From IMG/VR virus record IMGVR_UViG_3300037634_004340, positions 1 to 50,382 of that record: a stretch of DNA of 50,382 bases; one strand, given 5' to 3'. The position numbers and the translations under genes are program-made. This DNA is from a virus (lineage: Duplodnaviria; Caudoviricetes). Below are positions 4,428 through 21,370 of the stretch, in pieces. Below the pieces are notes generated by a model that was not told where the DNA came from, did not search any database, and saw nothing but the letters and a program-made list of their open reading frames with translations. Each line of letters starts with the position of its first letter. Position 1 is the stretch's first letter.

Positions 4428-4933
4428 TAATCTACTACCAAATATTCTACTGCTAAATGTCCTGCATCTGTATTATTAGATCCGTCAAGATCTACAGTTC
4501 TAACATGAAATTTTCCATCTAAACCAGCATTATCATCCTTTAAAACTATAGCTTCTCCAGGGTCTAATATTGAAATAAGAGTTGTTCCTCCAGGAGCCAT
4601 TATCTTTAAAGATTTATTAAGAGCAGCACCCAAAACCGTTGCCGAGTTAAAGGCGTATCCAGTATTTTTTATATATATAAAAGTAGCCGTAGACTCACCG
4701 TCTACTAAGTCTATAGCGTCTGAATCATCTTCTGCTTCTTTGTAATTTACAGTTCTGTCTTTATAACCCTGATTTGCAGCTGTACCCGAATAATTAGTAA
4801 CTGCAGCTGTACCGTTACCACTAAAAGACTTGCCTATTTCACTAGCTATTATATCGTTAGTAATAGAGGTTTCTTCTCCAGCTATTGTTTCAATAGGAGT
4901 AACGCTTACTGAGTATGATATTCTATCAGCCAT
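4427..4933 (-). CDS. Virion structural protein (hypothetical)
   Basis: 168 aa, beta-rich (FIYIKNTG, LDPGEAIVL), translationally coupled within the structural operon. Confidence 0.55.
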   Translation of the reverse strand: MADRISYSVSVTPIETIAGEETSITNDIIASEIGKSFSGNGTAAVTNYSGTAANQGYKDRTVNYKEAEDDSDAIDLVDGESTATFIYIKNTGYAFNSATVLGAALNKSLKIMAPGGTTLISILDPGEAIVLKDDNAGLDGKFHVRTVDLDGSNNTDAGHLAVEYLVVD

Positions 4934-5760
4934 TATGCTTTTCCTTGTTGTGGTGCTTTAGGAGCCATCATACTTGCAAATGAAGCTTGATATTGTCCTG
5001 CTAGCATTTTTAATCTTTCATGAACTCTAGTATAATCAGATGTAATTTTTTGCACTTCTAAAGTTCCTTCTGCTTGTAAATCTTGTACTCTAGCTGTAAA
5101 TTCAGCTACTTTAGCTTGAATTTCTTGAACTCTAGAAGTTAGCATTTCACTATCTTCTTCTGTACTTATCCATGTATTTGTATCAGCCCAATCAGGGGCA
5201 TTCATCAATGGTGAGGCTGGGAGAGTTAACGCTATGCTAGATAAGTTATTTTCTAATGATTTTATACCTGCGTACATAACAACTAAATAATGATATTCTT
5301 CTGGCATATACTGAATAGTTAAGTTATTTTCAGTGATATTATTATCATAACCTATATATTCAACAGAAGCTGTATTACTAACTGTTGCTACAGGTACGAC
5401 TTTAACAACATTTTCTTTTATGTACCATGCTGGATTATGAGCACTTTTATAATGCATACTTGTTGAGTCAGAAATTAAACCAACTAAACTACTTGATATT
5501 CTAGCGCAAGGTAAATCACTCGTACCATTATTTCTAGTAACAGATAATACATCTCCAGTAATAATAACTCCTCCTCCTGTATCAGTACCTACTTTAGAGA
5601 AGAATATTTTCTTATTAGGCATTAAGCCTATTACTTTATTAGTAACATCTTTAACACCATCTTTAAGAAATTGGGCTATCTCGCTCCAATTAGGAGCCGA
5701 TGAACCATCAATGGAAAGACCTGTTAATCCTTCAACTTGTTCTTCAAAAGTTCTTGCCAT
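4933..5760 (-). CDS. Head-tail adaptor/ring (tail tubular A-like) protein
   Basis: QFLKDGVKDV...PAWYI...VEYI...MPEEYHYLVVMYA pattern with a coiled-coil C-terminus; first gene after the capsid cluster. Confidence 0.55.
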   Translation of the reverse strand: MARTFEEQVEGLTGLSIDGSSAPNWSEIAQFLKDGVKDVTNKVIGLMPNKKIFFSKVGTDTGGGVIITGDVLSVTRNNGTSDLPCARISSSLVGLISDSTSMHYKSAHNPAWYIKENVVKVVPVATVSNTASVEYIGYDNNITENNLTIQYMPEEYHYLVVMYAGIKSLENNLSSIALTLPASPLMNAPDWADTNTWISTEEDSEMLTSRVQEIQAKVAEFTARVQDLQAEGTLEVQKITSDYTRVHERLKMLAGQYQASFASMMAPKAPQQGKA

Positions 5761-5770
5761 ATTATCCTAT

Positions 5771-5828
5771 AATAGCGCCTACCCTCTTAGACGAGGAAGT
5801 TTTCCAACTAAGAGGGCAGACTATTATT
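5771..5828 (-). terminator. Long hairpin after the capsid/decoration genes (attenuator or terminator)
   Basis: Minus-strand TCTGCCCTCTTAG pairs with CTAAGAGGGTAGG, with an outer AATAG/CTATT stem. Confidence 0.6.
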
Positions 5829-5845
5829 ATTTAACTGTTAACTAC

Positions 5846-6235
5846 TTAAACTGTTGCTAATGCAACTGAGCCATAATTTACAAGAACTTCACCTGACCCA
5901 ACGCTATCAAAATAAACAGCTATCATTTCATCAGGGGCATTTAATGTAACCTTATTGTTATTGGCTGCATTAAAAGTTCCAGAAGCTAATGTTACTGTAT
6001 GAGCAGCAGTACCAGAAGCACTTGTATTTTTAATTACGACAATTTGTCCAGCGTAATCTTTACCATGCAATCCAGTAATCGCAATTACAACAGATGCATG
6101 ATTTAATTCAATACATCGAACAACAGTACTATCAACTACTGCTGATGCAGTATATGATTGCAGATATGAACTAACATCAGTAATCTTCGCTATTTCACCA
6201 TCAGCTTTGATTTGTCCGTATAATGGATTAGCCAT
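5846..6235 (-). CDS. Putative capsid decoration/auxiliary protein
   Basis: 129 aa, Ala/Val/Thr-rich, directly after the major capsid gene, strong AAGGAG RBS. Confidence 0.5.
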   Translation of the reverse strand: MANPLYGQIKADGEIAKITDVSSYLQSYTASAVVDSTVVRCIELNHASVVIAITGLHGKDYAGQIVVIKNTSASGTAAHTVTLASGTFNAANNNKVTLNAPDEMIAVYFDSVGSGEVLVNYGSVALATV

Positions 6236-6250
6236 AATATACTCCTTTTC

Positions 6251-7792
6251 TTAAGTCCACAGAGCATGAGTTTCTGGACAACAGAACTCCATACCTGCTT
6301 CGGTTAATATTTGATCCACTCTACGATCTACACCACTGTTTTCTAGTGTTTGCACACCAACATAAACTGAAGTGTCTCTATTTAAGCCGTTACCAACTAA
6401 TGGTCTGTAAGCAACATACTTCATGTTAATACCAATCATTTGAACATTAGTGCCATCTAAGTGCACATTACGTGCAACATTCATGTCACCATATATTGTT
6501 GAAATTGTTGTTATATCAACACCAAATACTTTCTTTTTGCCAGTCATAGCAAAATGAGCTTGAGCGTTACCATCATCATGACCTGCTACTGGACTGCCTG
6601 TTGTGGCGCCCCTTCCAGGAACTACCATACCAATATTATTAGCAAAGTATCCAGATAGTTTATGCAACCAATTATAAACTGATGTATTACAAAAGAATAC
6701 AGTTGAAGAAGCATTATTATATCTAGGATCTAACATAGCTGATAAATCATCTAAGAAAGAGTCCTGGCTTTTAGTTGTAGGATCTAAGCTAAAGGTATTA
6801 CCATAAGTAGAGATAAAATCAACTGCGCCTTGAGTTGTATTTATTCCACCAGTTGTAGCTTGAGTTGAAAACAGTAAAGATTGCTCAATATCCCATTTAT
6901 GTTCAATGAGTTTTTCTTTCCATATTCTAGCCCATTCATTAGCTTGATACTTTAGTACTGTAGCACGATCTGTGTTATTCATAACTGCAGATGTTTTAAA
7001 GATCTGAGTTTGACCGTATGAAGTACTGTATGGCTGATCGGCCCATGTTTCAGGATAACCAGTACCTGTACCAAAAGCAGTACCAACAACATAGCATTTG
7101 AAAGGTTCTAAGTCTTCCTGAGCACCTGTTGTTACAGCTACACCAGTTACATCTGCTCCATCAGGAAATCTTAACGCTGCAGAACCTTTTACACAAGTAG
7201 CATTAACTATTGCATAATTAGCAGTATTTAAATCAACCGTGTTTATTTTCCATAACGTATAACCATCCATCAAAGCAGCTGTAAAAGCTCCTCCACCTGG
7301 GGCTTTATTAATTTTAATAATTTGACCAGGAATGAAGAATAAAGGTTGTGTACCAGTTACTCCAGCATAGTATTTGTTAGTTTGACCAACTATATTCTGC
7401 AAGTTACCTTGAGAATTATAATCAGTGTGGAATTTAAATGAATATATACTTGAACCAGCTGTAGCAGCTTCAGCTGAAGTTGCTGCATCGGGATTTGTAG
7501 CCGGTGCTGCTGCTGCAACTTTACTATAAGCTGCCATATAAGCATATCTTTTTGTATATGACGATCTTTTTTCAGTAAATTTGAAAGAAGGGTCATCTGT
7601 TGGTTTTTTAGCTGACATGCTTAAGAACCTAAAGAAAGGATCTTGAGCTAGAGCTAATTCAGACACTTGAGTACCAAAGTTATACTTTCGTCTCAAAGCG
7701 CCTGTATTTAGACCGGTAGTTGTCCCAGTGTGTACGCCAACATCTTGGCCACTATATAGGGAATTACCACCTATTGTATTCATATCAGACAT
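6251..7792 (-). CDS. Major capsid protein (HK97 fold)
   Basis: Portal-scaffold-capsid gene order; motifs PFFRFLS, QTQIFKT, EHKWDIEQSLLF, TQGAVDFI, DQILTEAGME..PETHA. Confidence 0.85.
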   Translation of the reverse strand: MSDMNTIGGNSLYSGQDVGVHTGTTTGLNTGALRRKYNFGTQVSELALAQDPFFRFLSMSAKKPTDDPSFKFTEKRSSYTKRYAYMAAYSKVAAAAPATNPDAATSAEAATAGSSIYSFKFHTDYNSQGNLQNIVGQTNKYYAGVTGTQPLFFIPGQIIKINKAPGGGAFTAALMDGYTLWKINTVDLNTANYAIVNATCVKGSAALRFPDGADVTGVAVTTGAQEDLEPFKCYVVGTAFGTGTGYPETWADQPYSTSYGQTQIFKTSAVMNNTDRATVLKYQANEWARIWKEKLIEHKWDIEQSLLFSTQATTGGINTTQGAVDFISTYGNTFSLDPTTKSQDSFLDDLSAMLDPRYNNASSTVFFCNTSVYNWLHKLSGYFANNIGMVVPGRGATTGSPVAGHDDGNAQAHFAMTGKKKVFGVDITTISTIYGDMNVARNVHLDGTNVQMIGINMKYVAYRPLVGNGLNRDTSVYVGVQTLENSGVDRRVDQILTEAGMEFCCPETHALWT

Positions 7793-13878: not shown

Positions 13879-14315
13879 TATTCGTAATCTCTAGAAAGAA
13901 TATCATCCCGAAGAGCATTATATTCCTTATGTTGTTTCGAAATATCTTCTCCTTCTTTGTAATGAGATTGCCCAAATCTCACTTTTTCTAAGTCAAATAA
14001 TCGATTTAATTCATCAGGCGTTACCCCATATTTATTCTTAGTTCCCCAGTTCAAATTGCTCATTACTTTGTCTCGCACACTTTCTCCTTGGGTTTTTCTA
14101 TACCAACTGTCTACATCATCGATATTAGAACCAACTCCAGGATTTGCTTTCCTAAATTTCTGAATAGTATGTTCTAAATCTCTTTTTGGCTCTAGGAGTC
14201 CTTCTAACCAATCATTTCTAGTTTCCCAATCATCTTTTTTAAACATTCCAGCAGTAGGATCTGCTGTAGCAGCATTCATGTTATTAAAAGCTGCTGAATC
14301 AATATTATCTGCCAT
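13878..14315 (-). CDS. Hypothetical protein (N-terminus shared with the toxin at 32218-32874)
   Basis: 145 aa, AAGGAG RBS, begins MADNIDSAAFNNM. Confidence 0.6.
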   Translation of the reverse strand: MADNIDSAAFNNMNAATADPTAGMFKKDDWETRNDWLEGLLEPKRDLEHTIQKFRKANPGVGSNIDDVDSWYRKTQGESVRDKVMSNLNWGTKNKYGVTPDELNRLFDLEKVRFGQSHYKEGEDISKQHKEYNALRDDILSRDYE

Positions 14316-15045
14316 TGCTTATCTCCTTTGGCCTTTCAGCCTCTTGTAACGCATCTTTACTAAAGCCTTGGAAGACAGCTCCTGTAAGTTGCGTTGTTTG
14401 TGTTTTACTCTTATCTTCCATATCCATAATGTCCGATAATTTAAATAAAGCTTTTAATTTAGATTCTTCTTTACTATCTTCTGAATCTATTACACCCTTT
14501 ATGTTTCTAAGGATATATGTCTCGTCTATACCTAATTCTTCCATGTAAGGAATTAATTCTTCTTTCATAGCTGTTTTTATCCTTGTAGTCTTTATTAACT
14601 GACCAGCTCTATAGTTAGCATAATGAGGGTTATTTGTAGGGAAAGCTTTTAAATAAGCCTTCATAGGATCTTCTCCTCTACTAACTAGCTGTACAAATAA
14701 CTCTTCTTTATTAGAGAGTTTTTCTCTGTCATGTAAGCGCTCATTACGCCCTATATCTCCTCCAAATGAGTATATATTAACTCTTTTAGAAGTATCCATT
14801 AAAGTTTTATCTGCCACTATAAAAGTGCCTGTACATGTCCCTAAATACCGGCGTTCTTTAATCTTGCCCTTAGGTTGGAACATCTTCCCTTCCCTAAGTA
14901 TTTGTATATAACAGTCATCATCAGCTTTTACCCAGTCGCCTATACTGGCCGCTTTCCAATCCTGAAGACAGTCAAGCCCCCGAGGTAACTCGTCTTCAGA
15001 ATCAAATACCGTATGTTCTACTTTATTTACTTTGTAATGCCTCAT
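14305..15045 (-). CDS. terS: Probable terminase small subunit with an N-terminal extension
   Basis: C-terminal half KEELFVQL...MKAYLKAF...AGQLI...LGIDETYIL...KLKALFKL follows the HTH plus oligomerisation-helix pattern of TerS; upstream of TerL. Confidence 0.65.
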   Translation of the reverse strand: MRHYKVNKVEHTVFDSEDELPRGLDCLQDWKAASIGDWVKADDDCYIQILREGKMFQPKGKIKERRYLGTCTGTFIVADKTLMDTSKRVNIYSFGGDIGRNERLHDREKLSNKEELFVQLVSRGEDPMKAYLKAFPTNNPHYANYRAGQLIKTTRIKTAMKEELIPYMEELGIDETYILRNIKGVIDSEDSKEESKLKALFKLSDIMDMEDKSKTQTTQLTGAVFQGFSKDALQEAERPKEISNGR

Positions 15046-15245
15046 TAAGCTACTCCAATTACATCACTCATTACATATTTAGCTAACTCTTGTGGCAATT
15101 CAATATCTAAATCTTCAACAGTAAATAATATCACTTCATCTCCTTCGTCAAGTACTTCTATATCTGTTACAGCGCCAGTTTTAGTATTAAATCTTAATGC
15201 TAATATTAGCTCTTTTTCCATATTTACTCCAAATCTTAATTTCAT
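15045..15245 (-). CDS. Small hypothetical protein
   Basis: 66-aa acidic ORF, TAATG-coupled to TerS. Confidence 0.55.
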   Translation of the reverse strand: MKLRFGVNMEKELILALRFNTKTGAVTDIEVLDEGDEVILFTVEDLDIELPQELAKYVMSDVIGVA

Positions 15246-15259
15246 CGGGATACAGTTCT

Positions 15260-15480
15260 CCCCTGAGCACTAAAGTACTTTTTAAAAAATTTTAATTTTA
15301 AATTTCACTTAAGGCCAGTAATAGCTCCCATACCTTTAGCTTATAATAAAACAATTTTTACTGGTTATCGGAGAAAACTCAGTCTACTATTTTGAAGACC
15401 TACAATCCGACTTCTGACCCATTTAGCAGAACCATCTCAGGGGTACTAACTGGGTGATAACTAAATAATAGTTACCAGTG
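15260..15480 (-). ncRNA. Structured leader RNA of the packaging operon (candidate)
   Basis: Long-range CCCCTGAG/CTCAGGGG and ACTGGT/ACCAGT pairings that cross each other, plus internal hairpins; begins just after a promoter-like site. Confidence 0.4.
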
Positions 15481-15485
15481 GGAAT

Positions 15486-15514
15486 AATATACAATGACTT
15501 CTATATTTTAACAA
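15486..15514 (-). promoter_or_regulatory. Putative leftward promoter
   Basis: TTGTTA-N17-TATATT on the minus strand at the start of the structural operon. Confidence 0.55.
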
Positions 15515-15630
15515 AGGTTTTAAAAATAGGAGGATTTTGGTGTATAGAGTTATTATTTACCCTACCCCCCTATCGGGGGGATTATGATATATATAATTAA
15601 GTTATTTTTGATTTCATTTTTATTGTTTTT

Positions 15631-15894
15631 ATGTATAATTATGGAGTTTATATGGCAATAGTCATTGATTGGGCTGAACGTTTTATGAGTCTTGTAGATT
15701 TATATCATGATCAGCATAATGCAGCACCACAGTATAGTTATAAGAGTAGAATAACTAAGACCAAAGTCTTAAGTAAGTACAGTATTAAGATGGAGTTCAT
15801 AGATAATCTAACAGAGATGGCTATACTATGTGATGATCAAGCAGTAAATGATAAGATAGACAAACTCATTCAAAAGTATGAGAAGCAACGTTAA
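15631..15894 (+). CDS. Hypothetical early protein (likely start 15652)
   Basis: First rightward ORF; GGAG RBS precedes the ATG at 15652. Confidence 0.55.
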   Translation: MYNYGVYMAIVIDWAERFMSLVDLYHDQHNAAPQYSYKSRITKTKVLSKYSIKMEFIDNLTEMAILCDDQAVNDKIDKLIQKYEKQR

Positions 15895-16057
15895 CCTTAA
15901 CCTGACCGAAATGTCATTAAACTATTTTTTCCTTATGTGTTTATGTATGTATTAGTACCAACATAGACCCAACATTGTATAAGTAATCTTAATTGGTTTA
16001 TGTTACTTGTATAATTTAGCCTGTCTTAAAGAACCCGATAGGAGTATTCCACCAAAA

Positions 16058-16105
16058 GCAAGATAAAGGTGTACATCTCACCCAAGAGGATAAAATGGGT
16101 CTTGC
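16058..16105 (+). ncRNA. Pseudoknotted RNA motif, copy 1
   Basis: GCAAGA/TCTTGC outer stem; inner hairpin with ACCCAA loop complementary to downstream TGGG; similar to 17241-17307. Confidence 0.45.
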
Positions 16106-16207
16106 AAAGATTTAATTTCTAAGGTAAAACCATTCAGACCTTTTGCAACAATGGACAACACTGATTATGTATTGCAAGGACATAATTAGATAGAAAGGAG
16201 CCTTGCT

Positions 16208-16261
16208 ACTCTTAATGCAGCCTGATGACGGTCACAAGCCCGTGTAATGCAGAGTGGGAGT
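16208..16261 (+). ncRNA. Twister self-cleaving ribozyme (P1 type)
   Basis: ACTCT-TAA-TGCA-GCC...ACGGTCACAAGCCCGT...TGCA-GA-GTG-GGAGT matches the twister consensus: UAA cleavage loop, P2 UGCA/UGCA, L4 UCACAAGC, and a T1 pseudoknot with a compensatory CAC/GUG. Confidence 0.85.
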
Positions 16262-16286
16262 TTATATTTAAATAAACGGAGGTATA

Positions 16287-16466
16287 GTGAAAAGAAAGAT
16301 ATTCTTTACACATTATAAACGGAGAACTGGATCTAGCAAGAATTGTAATAATGCTTGGGAACGAGTATTAATACGTGAGAAGGGTTCTAAAATTAGAGCT
16401 ATTAGAAAAGCATTGATAGCTATTCAAAATGTAGGTAAACAAAAACAATTATCTAAAGAGGTATAA
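16287..16466 (+). CDS. Small basic hypothetical protein (59 aa)
   Basis: GGAGGT RBS, GTG start, stop overlaps the next ATG (TAATG); below the ORF-track cutoff. Confidence 0.55.
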   Translation: MKRKIFFTHYKRRTGSSKNCNNAWERVLIREKGSKIRAIRKALIAIQNVGKQKQLSKEV

Positions 16467-16984
16467 TGACTATTTTAACCAATGGCGCAGTAGTAATTAA
16501 AGCTAAAGAACAATCTTTAGTATTTCCTGAAATTGTGCATGATGATCATAATATTTCATTCGATCATATGCATTTTATTCAAACTAATCCTGAATTACTA
16601 TTATTACCTGTAGGAACACGTATTGCTAAACTCTTCAAATTACCTGATGGTATGGAAAGAGTACAAAGTGCTTTATATGGTCCTAGTGCAGGTGATAAAC
16701 CTATTAAGGAAAGTGAAGTAATTTATGAAAAACGTGTAACATGTACTAAATGTCATTCAGCACGTCGAGGTTATAGCAGAATGGTAGATAAACCTACTAG
16801 GCCTGCTAATAACATTGTAGTTATTGGTATAATAGGTAAAGTAGCATTCACTATCTATGGTACTCAAGCCAATGCTGTTAGCCCTAAAGAACCATGGGAC
16901 AGTGGTTGTACTGATTCTGTTGAAGATTATGAATATTCAAAGAATTTTTGGGCAATACATGCTTTAAGTATGCATGAAAATTAA
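16466..16984 (+). CDS. Hypothetical phage protein
   Basis: 172 aa with motif-like LYGPSAGD, SRMV, TIYG, PKEPWD, FWAIHAL and a CTKC insert. Confidence 0.7.
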   Translation: MTILTNGAVVIKAKEQSLVFPEIVHDDHNISFDHMHFIQTNPELLLLPVGTRIAKLFKLPDGMERVQSALYGPSAGDKPIKESEVIYEKRVTCTKCHSARRGYSRMVDKPTRPANNIVVIGIIGKVAFTIYGTQANAVSPKEPWDSGCTDSVEDYEYSKNFWAIHALSMHEN

Positions 16985-17240
16985 ATCTTTCTTTAGGATA
17001 AATGAGACTACAGTGAGCTGTGTGCATGGCACTGACGCAATAATCAGTAGTATATTTAAAATAATTTATCTTTTAGGATTACAAATCAATAAGCTCTTTA
17101 AGAGGTTAGTCGACGCCTTGATGAGAGCTTAATGATTATGTTGCATAATGTCAAGTTTTGCAAACGCATGTTAATTAGAACACCTGCAGAAGGTAAGTAT
17201 AATTTATCGGGGGAGTGCGAGAATCTTTCCCACAATAAGT

Positions 17241-17307
17241 CCTCTTGCTTATAAAAGCGTATGCATCCTACCCAAGGGTCCTATGGTATAGTTGGGGTGG
17301 CGAGAGG
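17241..17307 (+). ncRNA. Pseudoknotted RNA motif, copy 2
   Basis: CCTCTTGC/GCGAGAGG outer stem; ATCCT-ACCCA-AGGGT hairpin whose loop pairs with downstream TGGG. Confidence 0.45.
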
Positions 17308-17688
17308 CAAGAATTGAGAGGTATGGAATATTGCCTATTAAGACTTCTATACAGTGATATATTCTCATAGAACAGTATAGAGCACCTCTCTTTTAGTTTA
17401 ATCGGACTGCGATTAATACGAGATGGATTATAAAAATGTGTTATTGCATTTTATTATTCTTCTTTTTTTGAAAAGTAGGGGTAGACTACACGGCAGGCCA
17501 AGGCTGAGCATGAACATACCCCGAAAATTTATAAATAGGCATAATTAGTATTGTCATTATATGTAGCGCATTGGTATCTCAATGAACATAATGTGAGCCA
17601 ATACATGAGAATTATGCCTAGAATTATTAAAATACAAAGTAGTTTTAACTACATTTTGTCCACTAATATATATAATAAACTGGACATA

Positions 17689-17724
17689 TTAGGTTACTTT
17701 TTAGGTTACTTTTTAGGTTACTTT
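17689..17724. repeat. Three perfect tandem 12-bp repeats TTAGGTTACTTT
   Basis: Read directly at 17689, 17701 and 17713. Confidence 0.95.
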
Positions 17725-17782
17725 TAGAACGTATCCTTTGGGAAAAACAATGAGCTAATGTAAGAGAATTGTGTCCAGATTT

Positions 17783-18163
17783 AGATGAAAGCGTTATAAT
17801 TAAAGAATAATTAACTTTATTTATAATGACTTAGAAACCTGTGTATTGTACGAAGATTGCAAGCAGGTAATCAGTTAGAGTAGTTGTACTCGCTCCGGTT
17901 ATCAAATGATAAAGAGAACGATTAATCAACGAACTGATGTAGTGTGATAAAAAGACTGATAGTCTTCAACCTTATTAGATGTGTTTACGCCAACTCTCTC
18001 TGCGGGCTGCACATACTTTCAATTAACTGTGATGGTTATAAGCAATGTATTACCTCAGCTAGGTGATATAAGTTTAGAGCGACAGCTTAAAGGAAGGATA
18101 AGGAAGCAATTATGAGAGCGCATTTACAAGTATATCAGAGTCTTGTCTAAGATTCTTTCATCT
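17783..18163 (+). ncRNA. Large (~380 nt) multibranch structured RNA candidate
   Basis: Terminal 9-bp stem AGATGAAAG/CTTTCATCT, nested CTTAGA/TCTAAG and many internal helices; no ORF of 60 aa or more. Confidence 0.55.
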
Positions 18164-18197
18164 TTAACTTTAAGTTGTCAATGTTATTAAAATAAAT

Positions 18198-18297
18198 GGA
18201 GCTTTCATAGAGGAATCATAGAGTTGTTGATTTTCAATTCTACCCAGGATAAAGATGTGTTGATTTTCATATCTCCTATGCTCAAGGTTGAAAGTCC
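18198..18297 (+). ncRNA. Twin-hairpin RNA with identical UUGAUUUU loops
   Basis: TAGAGTTG-TTGATTTT-CAATTCTA and AGATGTG-TTGATTTT-CATATCT, enclosed by CATAG/CTATG and CTTTCA/TGAAAG. Confidence 0.6.
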
Positions 18298-18588
18298 TAT
18301 ATAATTAACGATTTGAAATATGTATACATTAAGTTGAGGGATTACGAGCCCAAGTATACAAAACTTGCTAGCATGCCAAGGGAGAGACTTATGAAATCAC
18401 CGGTGGGTGAGATCCAAGCATGCTAAACATTAACACCATTCTAATGGTGTTCGGCTATGGAGGAAAGTGAGGTGTTCTAACGTATTTCGCTACCTAGGAT
18501 AATAAAAATTCTTTAATGAGGTATATTACCCAGAAAAAGAACCTTAAACCCTCCTCGCTGTGATTTTATATAAAAAAAAAGAGGTGTA

Positions 18589-18714
18589 ATGATAGAATAT
18601 TATATAGCAATTATGATTGGATTTATAGCAGGTTATTTTGTAGCCTGTTTAATGATGATAGCAAAAGGAAATACAAAAATAGATATGGATGTCCATAGCT
18701 GGAGAAATAAATGA
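18589..18714 (+). CDS. Small single-pass membrane protein (41 aa)
   Basis: GAGGTG RBS; MIEYYIAIMIGFIAGYFVACLMMIAK hydrophobic helix. Confidence 0.6.
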   Translation: MIEYYIAIMIGFIAGYFVACLMMIAKGNTKIDMDVHSWRNK

Positions 18715-18881
18715 GACAATTTAAACGAAAAAAAGAAATCCATCATCAACCTTGTGAGAATTATAATTGTATTAATTATTATAATACTTTATATAAGGAT
18801 GCTAATGGTAAGTGTAAGCCTTGTAATATCGTAGAAAAGGCTAAATCTAAAACAACCAATAAGGAGCTAAATGTTAGTTAA
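18711..18881 (+). CDS. Small Cys4 zinc-finger-like protein (56 aa)
   Basis: GGAG RBS, ATGA overlap, C-x4-C-x14-C-x2-C. Confidence 0.5.
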   Translation: MRQFKRKKEIHHQPCENYNCINYYNTLYKDANGKCKPCNIVEKAKSKTTNKELNVS

Positions 18882-19254
18882 AAAGCAGGAAAAAATAAGT
18901 GCTAGAGGTACAACTTTATATCCATTAAGAAGTAATGTACCAGCACCAGTTACAATTGAAAATACTAGATTATTAGGTTTTGTTAAAAGAAGAGCTGTTG
19001 ATTACATGCTTACAATGAAACGAGGCCAATCATTCTTAGTTGCAGGATTAACAAAAAAAGGTAATACTAAATTTGCAACAGTTAAAGAATGGATTAAAGA
19101 TGCACATAGACAATATTGTCGATTACATAAAATTGATGCTCCACGAGGAATAGATTTCTCAAAGAAAACTCCAATAGAATTTATAGCTCAAAATGTTGAG
19201 GATAAAATCCCAAAAGGAACTATAAAAGGAGTTAGAGTGTGGAGAGTAAAATAA
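18871..19254 (+). CDS. Small basic putative DNA-binding protein
   Basis: MKRGQSFLV...GVRVWRVK pattern seen in small phage DNA-binding proteins; AAGGAG RBS. Confidence 0.5.
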   Translation: MLVKKQEKISARGTTLYPLRSNVPAPVTIENTRLLGFVKRRAVDYMLTMKRGQSFLVAGLTKKGNTKFATVKEWIKDAHRQYCRLHKIDAPRGIDFSKKTPIEFIAQNVEDKIPKGTIKGVRVWRVK

Positions 19255-19453
19255 GAGGATCATGCGATAATTATCATAATTGCAATAGAGTCATACCTCC
19301 TCTGTTGTTACTTACAATGATCCTCTCCTATTCTTTAGGAAGCGAAATGAGGTAATTTATAAGGCAGATTCAGCAATTTAACATTGGAATTTTCATTTCC
19401 TCCAAACTTTGAGTCTGCCTTATTATTAACGGAATAAAAACGAAAGAAGAATT

Positions 19454-21370
19454 ATGAATGATATTATATCAATTTATAAACAAGGGCAAAATATACAATT
19501 GCCTAGTAATTTAGCTAATTTTAGAAATGTTACTATTTCAGATAGAGATAGAAGAGAGTATATATGTCAAAATCTAGGAATTATATTAAATTATTATTTA
19601 GGTTGGCATACAAGTACTGCATCTTTTGAAGCCGGAATTATTGCAACAGGTGACATGAATCAGTATCAATTAGAAAAATATAATAGTATTGCACCTATTC
19701 GTATTACTCCTTCATTTAGATTGGCCCCGGGTGAAGCAAAAAGAGTAGCTCAAAGATTAAAGTATGTACCAATGGTATGGTCAAAAGTAAGACATGGTTG
19801 GTATAGTAACTGTGATAGATATATAAAAGCTAATGAAGATCTTATTGTTAAAGATACTCAAACTCCTAGTGTTATAATTAATAAATATAAATTTAGAGGA
19901 AGTAGAAATAACTCCTTTAGAAATAATAATATAGATGTTAATACTGAGTTTTGGAATCTTCAAAGTGAACATTGGGAACAATCTACACAGAGAAGTGAAC
20001 AAAGTAGAATTGAAAATACTTATTATCATAGTAATAGAGATAGAGCATATGAGGATCTTTATTTAAGAGATTTTATTAATCCAAATACAGGAAATAATAA
20101 TTGGAGATATAGTTGGGATAGAAATTCATCTTCAGAATCATCACTTATAAACTTACAACATTATACAATTCAAAGTTTTTGTGCTGATGTGTTCAATTTA
20201 CTTAAAGAATCATTAACAATTAGAAGAAATACTCCTGAAATAGAATATAATGATGAAGAAGATTATACTCAAATGAGAGAGTTTCTTCTTAATCAAATAT
20301 CTGAAATTGATAGATGTAACACAATTGTTGAAAATATAGCAAGTATAAGAGAAGTGATATTAACTAAGTATCGAGGTTCTATTAAAATGTATATGAAATT
20401 TATATTAGAAGAACCACATATTGATATTAGTCATCCTTCTGGTAGCAGTGAGTATTCTTCTGTAACTAGGAATATAAAAGATATTAATGGTAATATTTCT
20501 GATTTCATAGGAGTTATTCAATTTGAATTAAGTCTTATAAATAATAAATTTAGAAGAAGAAATGTTATATTTTGTGGATATAATGATAATTCTCATGTAA
20601 ATCCTGGATTATATAATACAGCTAATCGTGATTCAAGAATAGCTAGAGTTATTAGAGGTATATTTAATTGTTTTACTTTAGATAGTCTCCAAAATAATAC
20701 TTGTCTTAGTGAATATGAACATGATATTATGTCTTCTATTAAAAGATTAGACTATTTAACAATGCTTATTAATATTGTTAGCTGGTATACTGTTTATGTA
20801 CCAGGTAGAACTAATCCTTATAGACATCCAAGACAATTATTCTTTGGTATTCCAAATGATATTCCTGAATGGTATAAAAGTCAGCATGATAGTAGTGTTG
20901 CAGCATGCGAAGCTCTTGTTATGACTGAATATGGTACAGGAGAAGCACGAAATGATAGTGAAACAGATATACTTAGACGTGTTACTGATGATAATTTAAA
21001 AGCATTATTGTTAAATCATTGTCATAATTGTTTTCATAATACTGATTGTCGTGTTAATTCTTATGCAAAAGGGATTGTTTATGGTGACAATGAAGTTGCT
21101 TATCAAGAAGCATTAATAGCACGTGAAGGGGCAATACAAATGCAAGAAGCGCTTGATCCTGGTGTAGCAGCTAGAGAGATTGAAGAAGAATCTGAATTAA
21201 GTCACAGTGAAGTTCAAGAGATTATTGAAGAAATTGTTGATACAGATCCTAGGCCTGCACATAGAAGAGTTGAACAGGTTATAGAATATGATGATCATGT
21301 AGTTCCGATTGAAACTGATCAAGAACGTACAATGAGATTAATGTCCGCCTGGAGTCAGGCAGAAAGGTAA
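19454..21370 (+). CDS. Large protein with a putative divergent E2 (UBC-like) domain and a Cys-rich region
   Basis: Beta-strands, then HVNP...NTCLSEY (Cys417), helices and SWY..Y...TNPY; distal C...CHNC..C; first gene of the JAB/E1/Ubl operon. The E2 call rests mainly on context. Confidence 0.45.
   Translation: MNDIISIYKQGQNIQLPSNLANFRNVTISDRDRREYICQNLGIILNYYLGWHTSTASFEAGIIATGDMNQYQLEKYNSIAPIRITPSFRLAPGEAKRVAQRLKYVPMVWSKVRHGWYSNCDRYIKANEDLIVKDTQTPSVIINKYKFRGSRNNSFRNNNIDVNTEFWNLQSEHWEQSTQRSEQSRIENTYYHSNRDRAYEDLYLRDFINPNTGNNNWRYSWDRNSSSESSLINLQHYTIQSFCADVFNLLKESLTIRRNTPEIEYNDEEDYTQMREFLLNQISEIDRCNTIVENIASIREVILTKYRGSIKMYMKFILEEPHIDISHPSGSSEYSSVTRNIKDINGNISDFIGVIQFELSLINNKFRRRNVIFCGYNDNSHVNPGLYNTANRDSRIARVIRGIFNCFTLDSLQNNTCLSEYEHDIMSSIKRLDYLTMLINIVSWYTVYVPGRTNPYRHPRQLFFGIPNDIPEWYKSQHDSSVAACEALVMTEYGTGEARNDSETDILRRVTDDNLKALLLNHCHNCFHNTDCRVNSYAKGIVYGDNEVAYQEALIAREGAIQMQEALDPGVAAREIEEESELSHSEVQEIIEEIVDTDPRPAHRRVEQVIEYDDHVVPIETDQERTMRLMSAWSQAER

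Follow-up and report, generated by a model that had tools for sequence, protein, structure and literature searches.

Two short elements following TATAAT boxes in an uncultured marine phage and their possible kinship with a four-way-junction leader RNA

Two small elements and their tentative reading as leader RNAs

The IMG/VR virus record IMGVR_UViG_3300037634_004340 (50,382 nt, estimated 92% complete; the whole of this stretch is referred to as the window) derives from an uncultured marine phage group and carries two short elements, designated copy 1 and copy 2, on the same strand of a gene-poor region near the terminase genes. Each follows a TATAAT box. The original prediction had taken them for two instances of one conserved compact pseudoknot RNA, an observation which proved real but over-read. 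Judged by sequence comparison, copy 2 is a genuine small conserved non-coding RNA module that is absent from Rfam 15. Of the new objects near the copies, the most solid is a four-way-junction leader RNA, E0, encoded on the opposite strand, and copy 1 is probably related to both copy 2 and E0. Our preferred reading, offered tentatively and as something a little short of probable, is that both stretches are non-catalytic, promoter-proximal leader RNA modules, i.e., cut-down relatives of E0 acting in cis. The two elements are composed as follows.

16058 to 16105, plus strand: copy 1; P1 is formed by GCAAGA (16058-16063) and UCUUGC (16100-16105), 6 bp.
16064 to 16077, plus strand: UAAA (16064-16067) and GGUGUACAUC (16068-16077) of copy 1, the latter with AUC at 16075-16077.
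16080 to 16085, plus strand: ACCCAA of copy 1, with the hairpin strands UCUC and GAGG around it; UGGGU lies at 16096-16100.
17241 to 17307, plus strand: copy 2; P1 is formed by CCUCUUGC (17241-17248) and GCGAGAGG (17300-17307), 8 bp including one U.G pair.
17265 to 17297, plus strand: AUC (17265-17267), CCU and GGG around ACCCAA (17270-17275), and UUGGGG (17292-17297) of copy 2; GCGUAUGC comes after P1.
17237 to 17312, plus strand: conserved module of copy 2, which recurs in loci L146 and L204 (see below).

All of the letters named in the original prediction (P1, UAAA, a near-palindrome, AUC, ACCCAA and UGGG) are present in both copies, and both allow P1 (6 and 8 bp), a small hairpin enclosing ACCCAA (4 and 3 bp), and pairing of ACCCA with UGGG(U). 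The statement that the P1 sequences differ completely yet pair was borne out for the pairing alone, since both helices are built from the hexamers UCUUGC and GCAAGA, the order of which is swapped between the copies. An alternative P1 of copy 2, joining UCUUGC with GCAAGA (17307-17312), was rejected because a C.A mismatch in a second phage genome, G041, breaks the pairing.

Standard folding recovers P1 and the hairpin, although no better than in shuffled sequences (z -1.28 for copy 1 and -1.05 for copy 2). In copy 1, ACCCA (16080-16084) is able to pair with UGGGU (16096-16100) either in a nested manner or as a pseudoknot with the UCUC/GAGG hairpin. The nested fold (-7.1 kcal/mol, versus -7.0 for P1 plus hairpin) consists of P1, a 17-nt 5' bulge ending in AUC-UC, the 5-bp ACCCA:UGGGU helix and an 11-nt loop. 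Copy 1 lacks a 3' strand for a second helix (P2) and offers only P1 and the 4-bp hairpin. No ribozyme or riboswitch family of Rfam scored on either copy, even at E<=10, in searches of 86 and 101 nt (16040-16125 and 17225-17325). No description of these elements was found in the main texts of the literature consulted, one preprint included.

Copy 2 as a discrete conserved module

Copy 2 recurs as a 77-nt island in the phage genome G041 (60,955 nt; loci L146 and L205), where L146 5237-5313 is 96.1% identical to window 17237-17312. Nothing else aligns around this island, which ends 4-5 nt beyond P1, and the TerS proteins are only ~42-49% identical (tblastx segments). Three differences separate the window from G041: a U to C change by which U.G in P1 becomes C-G, a change from A to G in the A-rich joiner, and an extra G in the G-run. 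This last difference, a 1-nt indel inside the island, argues against a conserved reading frame, and a coding interpretation of copy 2 was rejected on this ground.

In L204, a metagenome contig of the window's own lineage, copy 2 is unchanged and the next 86 nt are replaced by AA; contigs of runs X3 and X5 likewise skip this segment and have AA instead. In these variants the break coincides exactly with the 3' end of copy 2. The segment concerned is:

17311 to 17396, plus strand: long terminator-like hairpin, GAGAGGU (17316-17322) with ACCUCUC (17384-17390), then UUUU; -19.1 kcal/mol.

In run X3, a separate 200-nt contig covers only 17315-17390, and the 86-nt hairpin element may sit in another context there. 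A riboswitch logic linking copy 2 to this hairpin was considered and rejected: the alternative pairings considered still leave a terminator-like hairpin. The module is rare, as a covariance model of copy 2 (R1) matched only one of 40 related full records.

The E0 family and its link to the two copies

The following element lies on the other strand, to the left of copy 1.

15360 to 15479, minus strand: E0, a ~120-nt four-way-junction leader RNA upstream of the operon of a small open reading frame (ORF) and TerS.

It consists of P1, hairpin H1, an AUC joiner, the long arm H2 (opening with ACCC(A):(U)GGGU), a CAGA(A/C)G joiner, and P3 carrying hairpin H3. From the window sequence alone, RNAfold gives the four-way shape (-34.0 kcal/mol, z -2.2). 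When 15340-15485 of the minus strand was used as a query, 47 matches were obtained at E<=1e-3, and the alignment comprises 40 rows, 38 of them distinct. At least 599 TerL relatives exist in IMG/VR, of which 80 loci were kept for comparison; E0 is found in about 40 of these 80. Rfam gave no match at this position on either strand. Contig depth peaks over 15302-15452 in all four runs, which fits the wide conservation of E0.

RNAalifold recovered the H2 and P3 helices with two-sided changes; pair 49-87, for example, reads CG in 30 rows, UA in 5, GU in 3, and UG and GC in one each. In H2, 90.6% of the cells are paired, compared to 75.1% in shuffles, and 64 cells carry double changes, compared to 23; in neither case did any of 500 shuffles reach the observed value, and slid partners gave 18-48%. 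P1 is present in all 40 rows, reaching 6 bp or more in 34 of them, and shows 21 distinct pairings; H1 and P3 show 31 and 9, respectively. By these measures the covariation is strong in all four helices, and ACCC:GGGU of E0 appears as an ordinary nested helix supported by covariation, not as a pseudoknot. A CCCA/UGGG pseudoknot had been proposed for the copies; it is possible but not supported, as the pairing corresponds to a plain nested helix in the related E0 and a nested fold is equally good for copy 1.

The connection between copy 1 and E0 runs through two viral loci, L284 (a marine viral contig) and its relative L345. Copy 1 shares 14+6 exact nucleotides with both: UCACCCAAGAGGAU, then, after a gap of 14 nt, UGGGUC. 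Across IMG/VR this pattern is restricted to six stretches, namely the window lineage, L284, L345 and three GC-rich ones. The 3' part of the L284 element is 84% identical over 56 nt to window 15421-15366 on the minus strand (E 3.6e-7) and also matches many TerL relatives upstream of TerS, which makes this element a divergent E0 member. An E0 5'-domain model (R2) scores these divergent members, L284 and L345, at only 25 and 24 bits. In L284, the core resembling copy 1 lies on the strand opposite its twister ribozyme. The near-self-complementary segment of the copies sits at the H1 position of E0, where L284 has a CAC-GAAA-GUG hairpin and L345 has GCAA, so that a GNRA loop is kept. The signature ATC-N0-2-ACCCA-N8-40-TGGG[GT] gave 18 matches in 1,884,986 nt of related phage DNA: 12 E0 elements, the 4 occurrences of the copies and 2 others.

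In L284, the E0-like element is followed by ~300 nt (~5700-6010, minus strand) that are GC-richer, contain four GAAA loops and lie upstream of a 107-amino-acid (aa) ORF. This segment, which has no Rfam match, looks like a larger structured RNA.

Promoter-like position

16009 to 16018, plus strand: GTATAATTTA, containing the -10-like TATAAT (16010-16015), 42 nt before P1 of copy 1.
17197 to 17206, plus strand: GTATAATTTA, containing the -10-like TATAAT (17198-17203), 37 nt before P1 of copy 2; TTAGAA lies 17 nt upstream.

Both TATAAT boxes are thus enclosed by the identical 10-mer GTATAATTTA (frequency of TATAAT in the window, 0.00146 per nt). The sequence GTATAATT occurs three times in the whole window (15633, 16009 and 17197), always intergenic and on the plus strand, with the occurrence at 15633 preceding the first rightward ORF. 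Three occurrences do not exceed expectation; what is informative is where they are placed. In the E0 alignment, TATA[AT]T is found just upstream in 35 of 40 rows, suggesting that E0 probably forms the very 5' end of the leftward operon transcript. By their position 37-42 nt past TATAAT, both copies are probably 5' leader elements as well.

One family or coincidence

The evidence that copies 1 and 2 form a single family is modest, and a real kinship seems, from the comparisons below, the better bet. Without gaps, their cores are identical at 17 of 25 positions. The copy 2 core is matched at this level or better by 16 sites in 1,682,596 nt of related phage DNA, i.e., about one per window, so the core alone is not beyond chance. 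A loose twister-like descriptor (P1, UAA, a hairpin and a 4-nt loop complement) finds a mean of 653 matches per shuffled window, and such a topology by itself therefore carries no meaning. The combination is rarer. Among 53 background sites with at least 16 of 25 matching positions, one also had a P1 of at least 6 bp and a loop complement beside P1'; the corresponding after-the-fact empirical test gives p of about 0.02 (roughly 1 in 50) for a chance pair.

A scan with the core pattern in three public collections yielded ~131 unrelated matches, 97 of them in viral, 14 in metagenome and 20 in genome contigs. Counted by stretches, viral contigs gave 99, of which 2 were real, genome contigs gave 20, none of them real, and metagenome contigs gave 17, with 3 real ones, all from already known lineages. 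Only one of the unrelated matches, L188, combined a P1 of 6 bp or more with an adjacent GGG; as this 7-bp P1 lies inside a 356-aa ORF, it was set aside as a chance match. A scan specific to copy 2 returned three stretches, two of them due to chance.

The original prediction of a conserved compact element holds at least for copy 2, with its 96% identity in G041, but the searches and models do not connect it to copy 1. In 1.69 Mb, single-sequence nhmmer searches started from either copy missed the other at E<=10. The covariance model of copy 2, R1, recovers the window, G041 and L204, but copy 1 went unreported at E<=10 in 879,393 nt.

The search pattern was also matched by a highly conserved intergenic element at L208 4981-5038 and in nine other Ca. 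Planktophila/freshwater contigs. It has an 11-bp stem, AAACCUGAGUC/GACUCAGGUUU, around CAUCUUACCCAAGAG, with UGGGGUA downstream. The element is situated ahead of a 687-aa ORF and matches no Rfam family.

A twister ribozyme between the two copies

Copy 1 is embedded in a block (15895-16271) that is 100% identical in a related contig, L002, while the ORF just upstream is only 87% identical. The homology ends right after 16271. This block also contains a known type of ribozyme:

16209 to 16260, plus strand: type-P1 twister without P3 (Rfam RF03160; 54.5 bits, E 1.3e-10, full model 1-68).

That it falls short of the gathering score of 67.2 is due to the missing optional P3. P1, P2, P4, the conserved U-A-A, L4 and the T1 pairing are all present, with T1 formed by CAC (16233-16235) and GUG (16254-16256) in place of CCC:GGG, so that both sides are changed and the pairing is preserved. 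Cleavage is predicted between U16213 and A16214. The twister begins 104 nt past copy 1, sits between both copies and ends 27 nt ahead of the ribosome-binding site and start of the ORF at 16287. The likeness to twister noted in the original prediction was apt in one respect, as a true ribozyme of this kind lies between the copies.

The same subtype is present in at least 114 IMG/VR stretches, several loci having two, and also in L284; among 40 related records it was found only in the near-identical one. Variants carry a 389-nt gene cassette inserted just after the twister (~16271-16285). In L002, L204 and run X3, mosaic breakpoints are located immediately past the ribozyme. In L284, a pistol ribozyme (6884-6947, 52.2 bits, gathering score 34.5) and the twister (7668-7719, 55.5 bits), both on the plus strand, occupy successive intergenic gaps of rightward genes. 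Two types of candidate from twister loci were rejected: type (a), with a variation pattern that suggests coding sequence, and type (b), which is a 5' untranslated region with a small hairpin and a ribosome-binding site.

Proposed role and points against it

According to the leader reading, copies 1 and 2 would be the leaders of the second and third rightward early transcription units, transcribed from a sigma-70-type promoter (GTATAATTTA), and each element would start ~30-35 nt after the transcription start that we infer. The fold would comprise the closing P1, a long 5'-side bulge ending in AUC, and an inner helix ACCCA:UGGG(U), as in arm H2 of E0. E0 heads the terminase and structural operon at its 5' end, and the copies would be portable reduced versions of E0. 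Working in cis, each may provide its own transcript with a recognition module for a factor shared with E0 (candidates are RNA polymerase, a phage protein or an RNase) and so set elongation, processing or stability. The terminator-like hairpin after copy 2 fits a role in elongation control. The copies themselves would not be self-cleaving; the twister would sever the copy 1 leader at U16213/A16214, giving an mRNA with a 5'-OH and a free leader of ~190 nt.

Several results weigh against this reading. The nested fold of copy 2 (-14.2 kcal/mol) is much weaker than its minimum free energy (MFE) fold (-21.5), and the latter contains a P2-like helix, AGC.GUAUGC/GUAUAGUU, which creates a twister-like order of P1, P2 and hairpin. 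In comparison to E0, both copies have two extra nucleotides between AUC and ACCCA and lack the invariant CAGA together with the whole 3' domain (P3/H3). With filters off, R2 detected only E0 in the window (76.4 bits), and neither copy was among its 14 matches at E<=10. The signature pattern had been written after the copies were seen. The -35 hexamers are weak at both sites, for which reason a simple promoter scan listed neither. G041 carries copy 2 with no TATAAT upstream of it, and has no E0. Finally, the copies are known from only three lineages, too few for covariation to bear on their own helices.

Alternative explanations

One alternative is that the copies are not one family and share their layout by coincidence. 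Copy 2 would then be a conserved mobile RNA module, and copy 1 either what is left of an E0-type hairpin (a fragment or relic) or a look-alike due to chance. This we regard as rather unlikely, though several observations favour it: nhmmer, R1 and R2 all fail to connect the copies, about one site per window is expected to reach a core identity of 17/25, the loose topology is found everywhere, and the copies differ in length, spacer and the presence of a P2-like helix. What it leaves to coincidence is the pairing of P1 with a complement beside P1', which is rare among core matches (1 of 53, and 1 of ~131), and the similar distance of both copies from an identical GTATAATTTA on the same strand of the same gene-poor region. 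Conservation could also operate at the DNA level, with the copies serving as linker or regulatory cassettes for gene-module exchange or as protein-binding sites, and RNA folding being incidental. The mosaic breakpoints at the 3' ends of the twister (~16271-16285) and of copy 2 (17310) agree with this, as does the hypervariable early region, with six ORFs present in none of 80 relatives; the promoter-stem-loop (PeSL) cassettes of T4-type phages, reportedly described by Arbiol et al. in 2010, would be a precedent. Yet the G.U pairs (P1 of copy 2, P4 and the P2-like helix) work only on the plus strand, a U.G pair of the window is C-G in G041, the island conserved in G041 excludes the promoter-like sequence, and the related E0 shows covariation of the RNA type. 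We consider a DNA-level explanation improbable.

Equally hard to credit is that one or both copies constitute a new small self-cleaving ribozyme with a twister-like core that processes early transcripts. P1, the U-A-A after it, the CCCAAG loop and the complement between loop and 3' junction are present in the sequence, and the MFE fold of copy 2 contains the P2-like helix in twister order. A true twister follows copy 1 at a distance of 104 nt, L284 has pistol and twister in successive intergenic gaps, and Weinberg et al. are said to have found new ribozyme classes beside known ones in 2015. Against this, twister, twister-sister, pistol, hatchet and other families gave no match at E<=10, copy 1 has no P2 3' strand, no T2 partner is visible in either copy, and CCCA:UGGG is a nested helix in the related E0. 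The guanine named as general base in PMC6154101, G45, has no clear counterpart in copy 1. The claim of a twister-type or other ribozyme identity in the original prediction was not upheld, given that no ribozyme or riboswitch family scores. Here we presume the placement of G45 in the twister consensus and the exact T2 bases. A broader proposal, which strikes us as doubtful, is that the elements with AUC and ACCCA:UGGGU (E0 and the copies) make up a new class of promoter-proximal phage RNA acting on transcription or processing, either by put-like antitermination (e.g., of the 17316-17394 hairpin) or as a new self-cleaving fold.

Comparison with known systems

Twister (RF03160, clan CL00120) resembles the copies in its closing P1, the U-A-A after the P1 5' strand, CCCAAG in the loop, and the G-run beside the P1 3' strand, which is able to pair with the loop. 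The copies differ in having no model score, no T2, no L2 nucleotides GCC/UAAA and, in copy 1, no P2. Rfam covariance models of the twister clan gave no match on either copy in 15000-19500. A double pseudoknot, L4-L1 (T1) and L4-L2 (T2), is described in PMC6154101 as the critical part of all known twisters; a T1-like complement exists in both copies, whereas a T2 complement is visible in neither.

E0 shares with the copies the promoter-proximal position and the AUC junction followed by ACCCA:UGGGU, and copy 1 has 20 exact nucleotides in common with the L284/L345 form. Unlike E0, the copies close P1 directly after the helix, have no P3/H3 or CAGA, and contain 2 extra nt after AUC.

The nut sites of lambda and the put leader RNAs of HK022 are small structured RNA sites, two per genome, shortly after early promoters. 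The window likewise has two sites of similar layout and different stem sequence, the second followed by a terminator-like hairpin, but there is no similarity of sequence or fold, no N-like protein was identified, and a twister located after copy 1 would sever the tether. In the T7 early mRNA, the sites processed by RNase III are repeated bulged stems in intergenic gaps of a polycistronic early region. The copies are similar in being repeated bulged stem structures in intergenic gaps of the early region, but their stems are far shorter (5-8 bp), with a one-sided bulge of 16-21 nt.

In this phage group, the gene-poor stretch by the terminase genes is a depot of structured RNAs: the window has a twister, E0 and the two small elements, a relative has a pistol plus a twister, and other relatives have GOLLD. 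If the small elements and E0 do share a factor, they would offer a handle on the control of long operons in these phages and would be relevant to the question of why ribozymes are located at junctions of exchanged gene cassettes. If the elements formed a new class, E0 would be a widespread, undescribed functional RNA of an abundant group of marine phages that trade GOLLD, twister and pistol in the same region. Being short, portable and bounded by stems, the elements are convenient for bench testing.

Genomic setting and further observations

The TerL of the window has less than 28% identity to that of any cultured phage (best match in the 'phages' collection), and 15900-17500 has no DNA match in that collection, while DNA of the region is present in marine metagenomes; a search for RNA runs covering 15000-19500 listed none. 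The genomic surroundings are:

14305 to 15045, minus strand: TerS; the TerL and portal genes are likewise on the minus strand.
15045 to 19454: gene-poor stretch.
15631 to about 29200: rightward genes.

The gene-poor stretch is hypervariable: TerL is present in 80 of 80 related loci and TerS in 62, while six ORFs between 16287 and 21370 are found in none. Close homologues sought via neighbouring proteins were found neither for the 172-aa nor for the 638-aa ORF. With Rfam 15, the whole window gave no match at the gathering threshold, and ARAGORN detected no tRNA or tmRNA gene in it.

GOLLD RNA (RF02032) occurs in 6 of 37 related phage records, four above the gathering score, in the variable region beside TerS; one example is L146 3735-4117 (= G041 4902-5284). 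There is none in the window.

Several other features of the window were recorded. A perfect hairpin, CCCCCC-UAUC-GGGGGG, lies at 15565-15580 between the divergent transcription units. The motif AGGATAA is enriched in non-coding stretches (5 seen versus 0.37 expected; sites include 16087, 16995, 18246 and 18496), and at three sites an AUG with a tiny ORF of 2-6 codons comes next. Positions 16985-18588 form 1.6 kb without an ORF longer than 60 aa, and blocks of this segment are rearranged in variant contigs; it may contain more non-coding RNAs. Three tandem 12-nt repeats (TTAGGTTACTTT) are located at 17684-17725.

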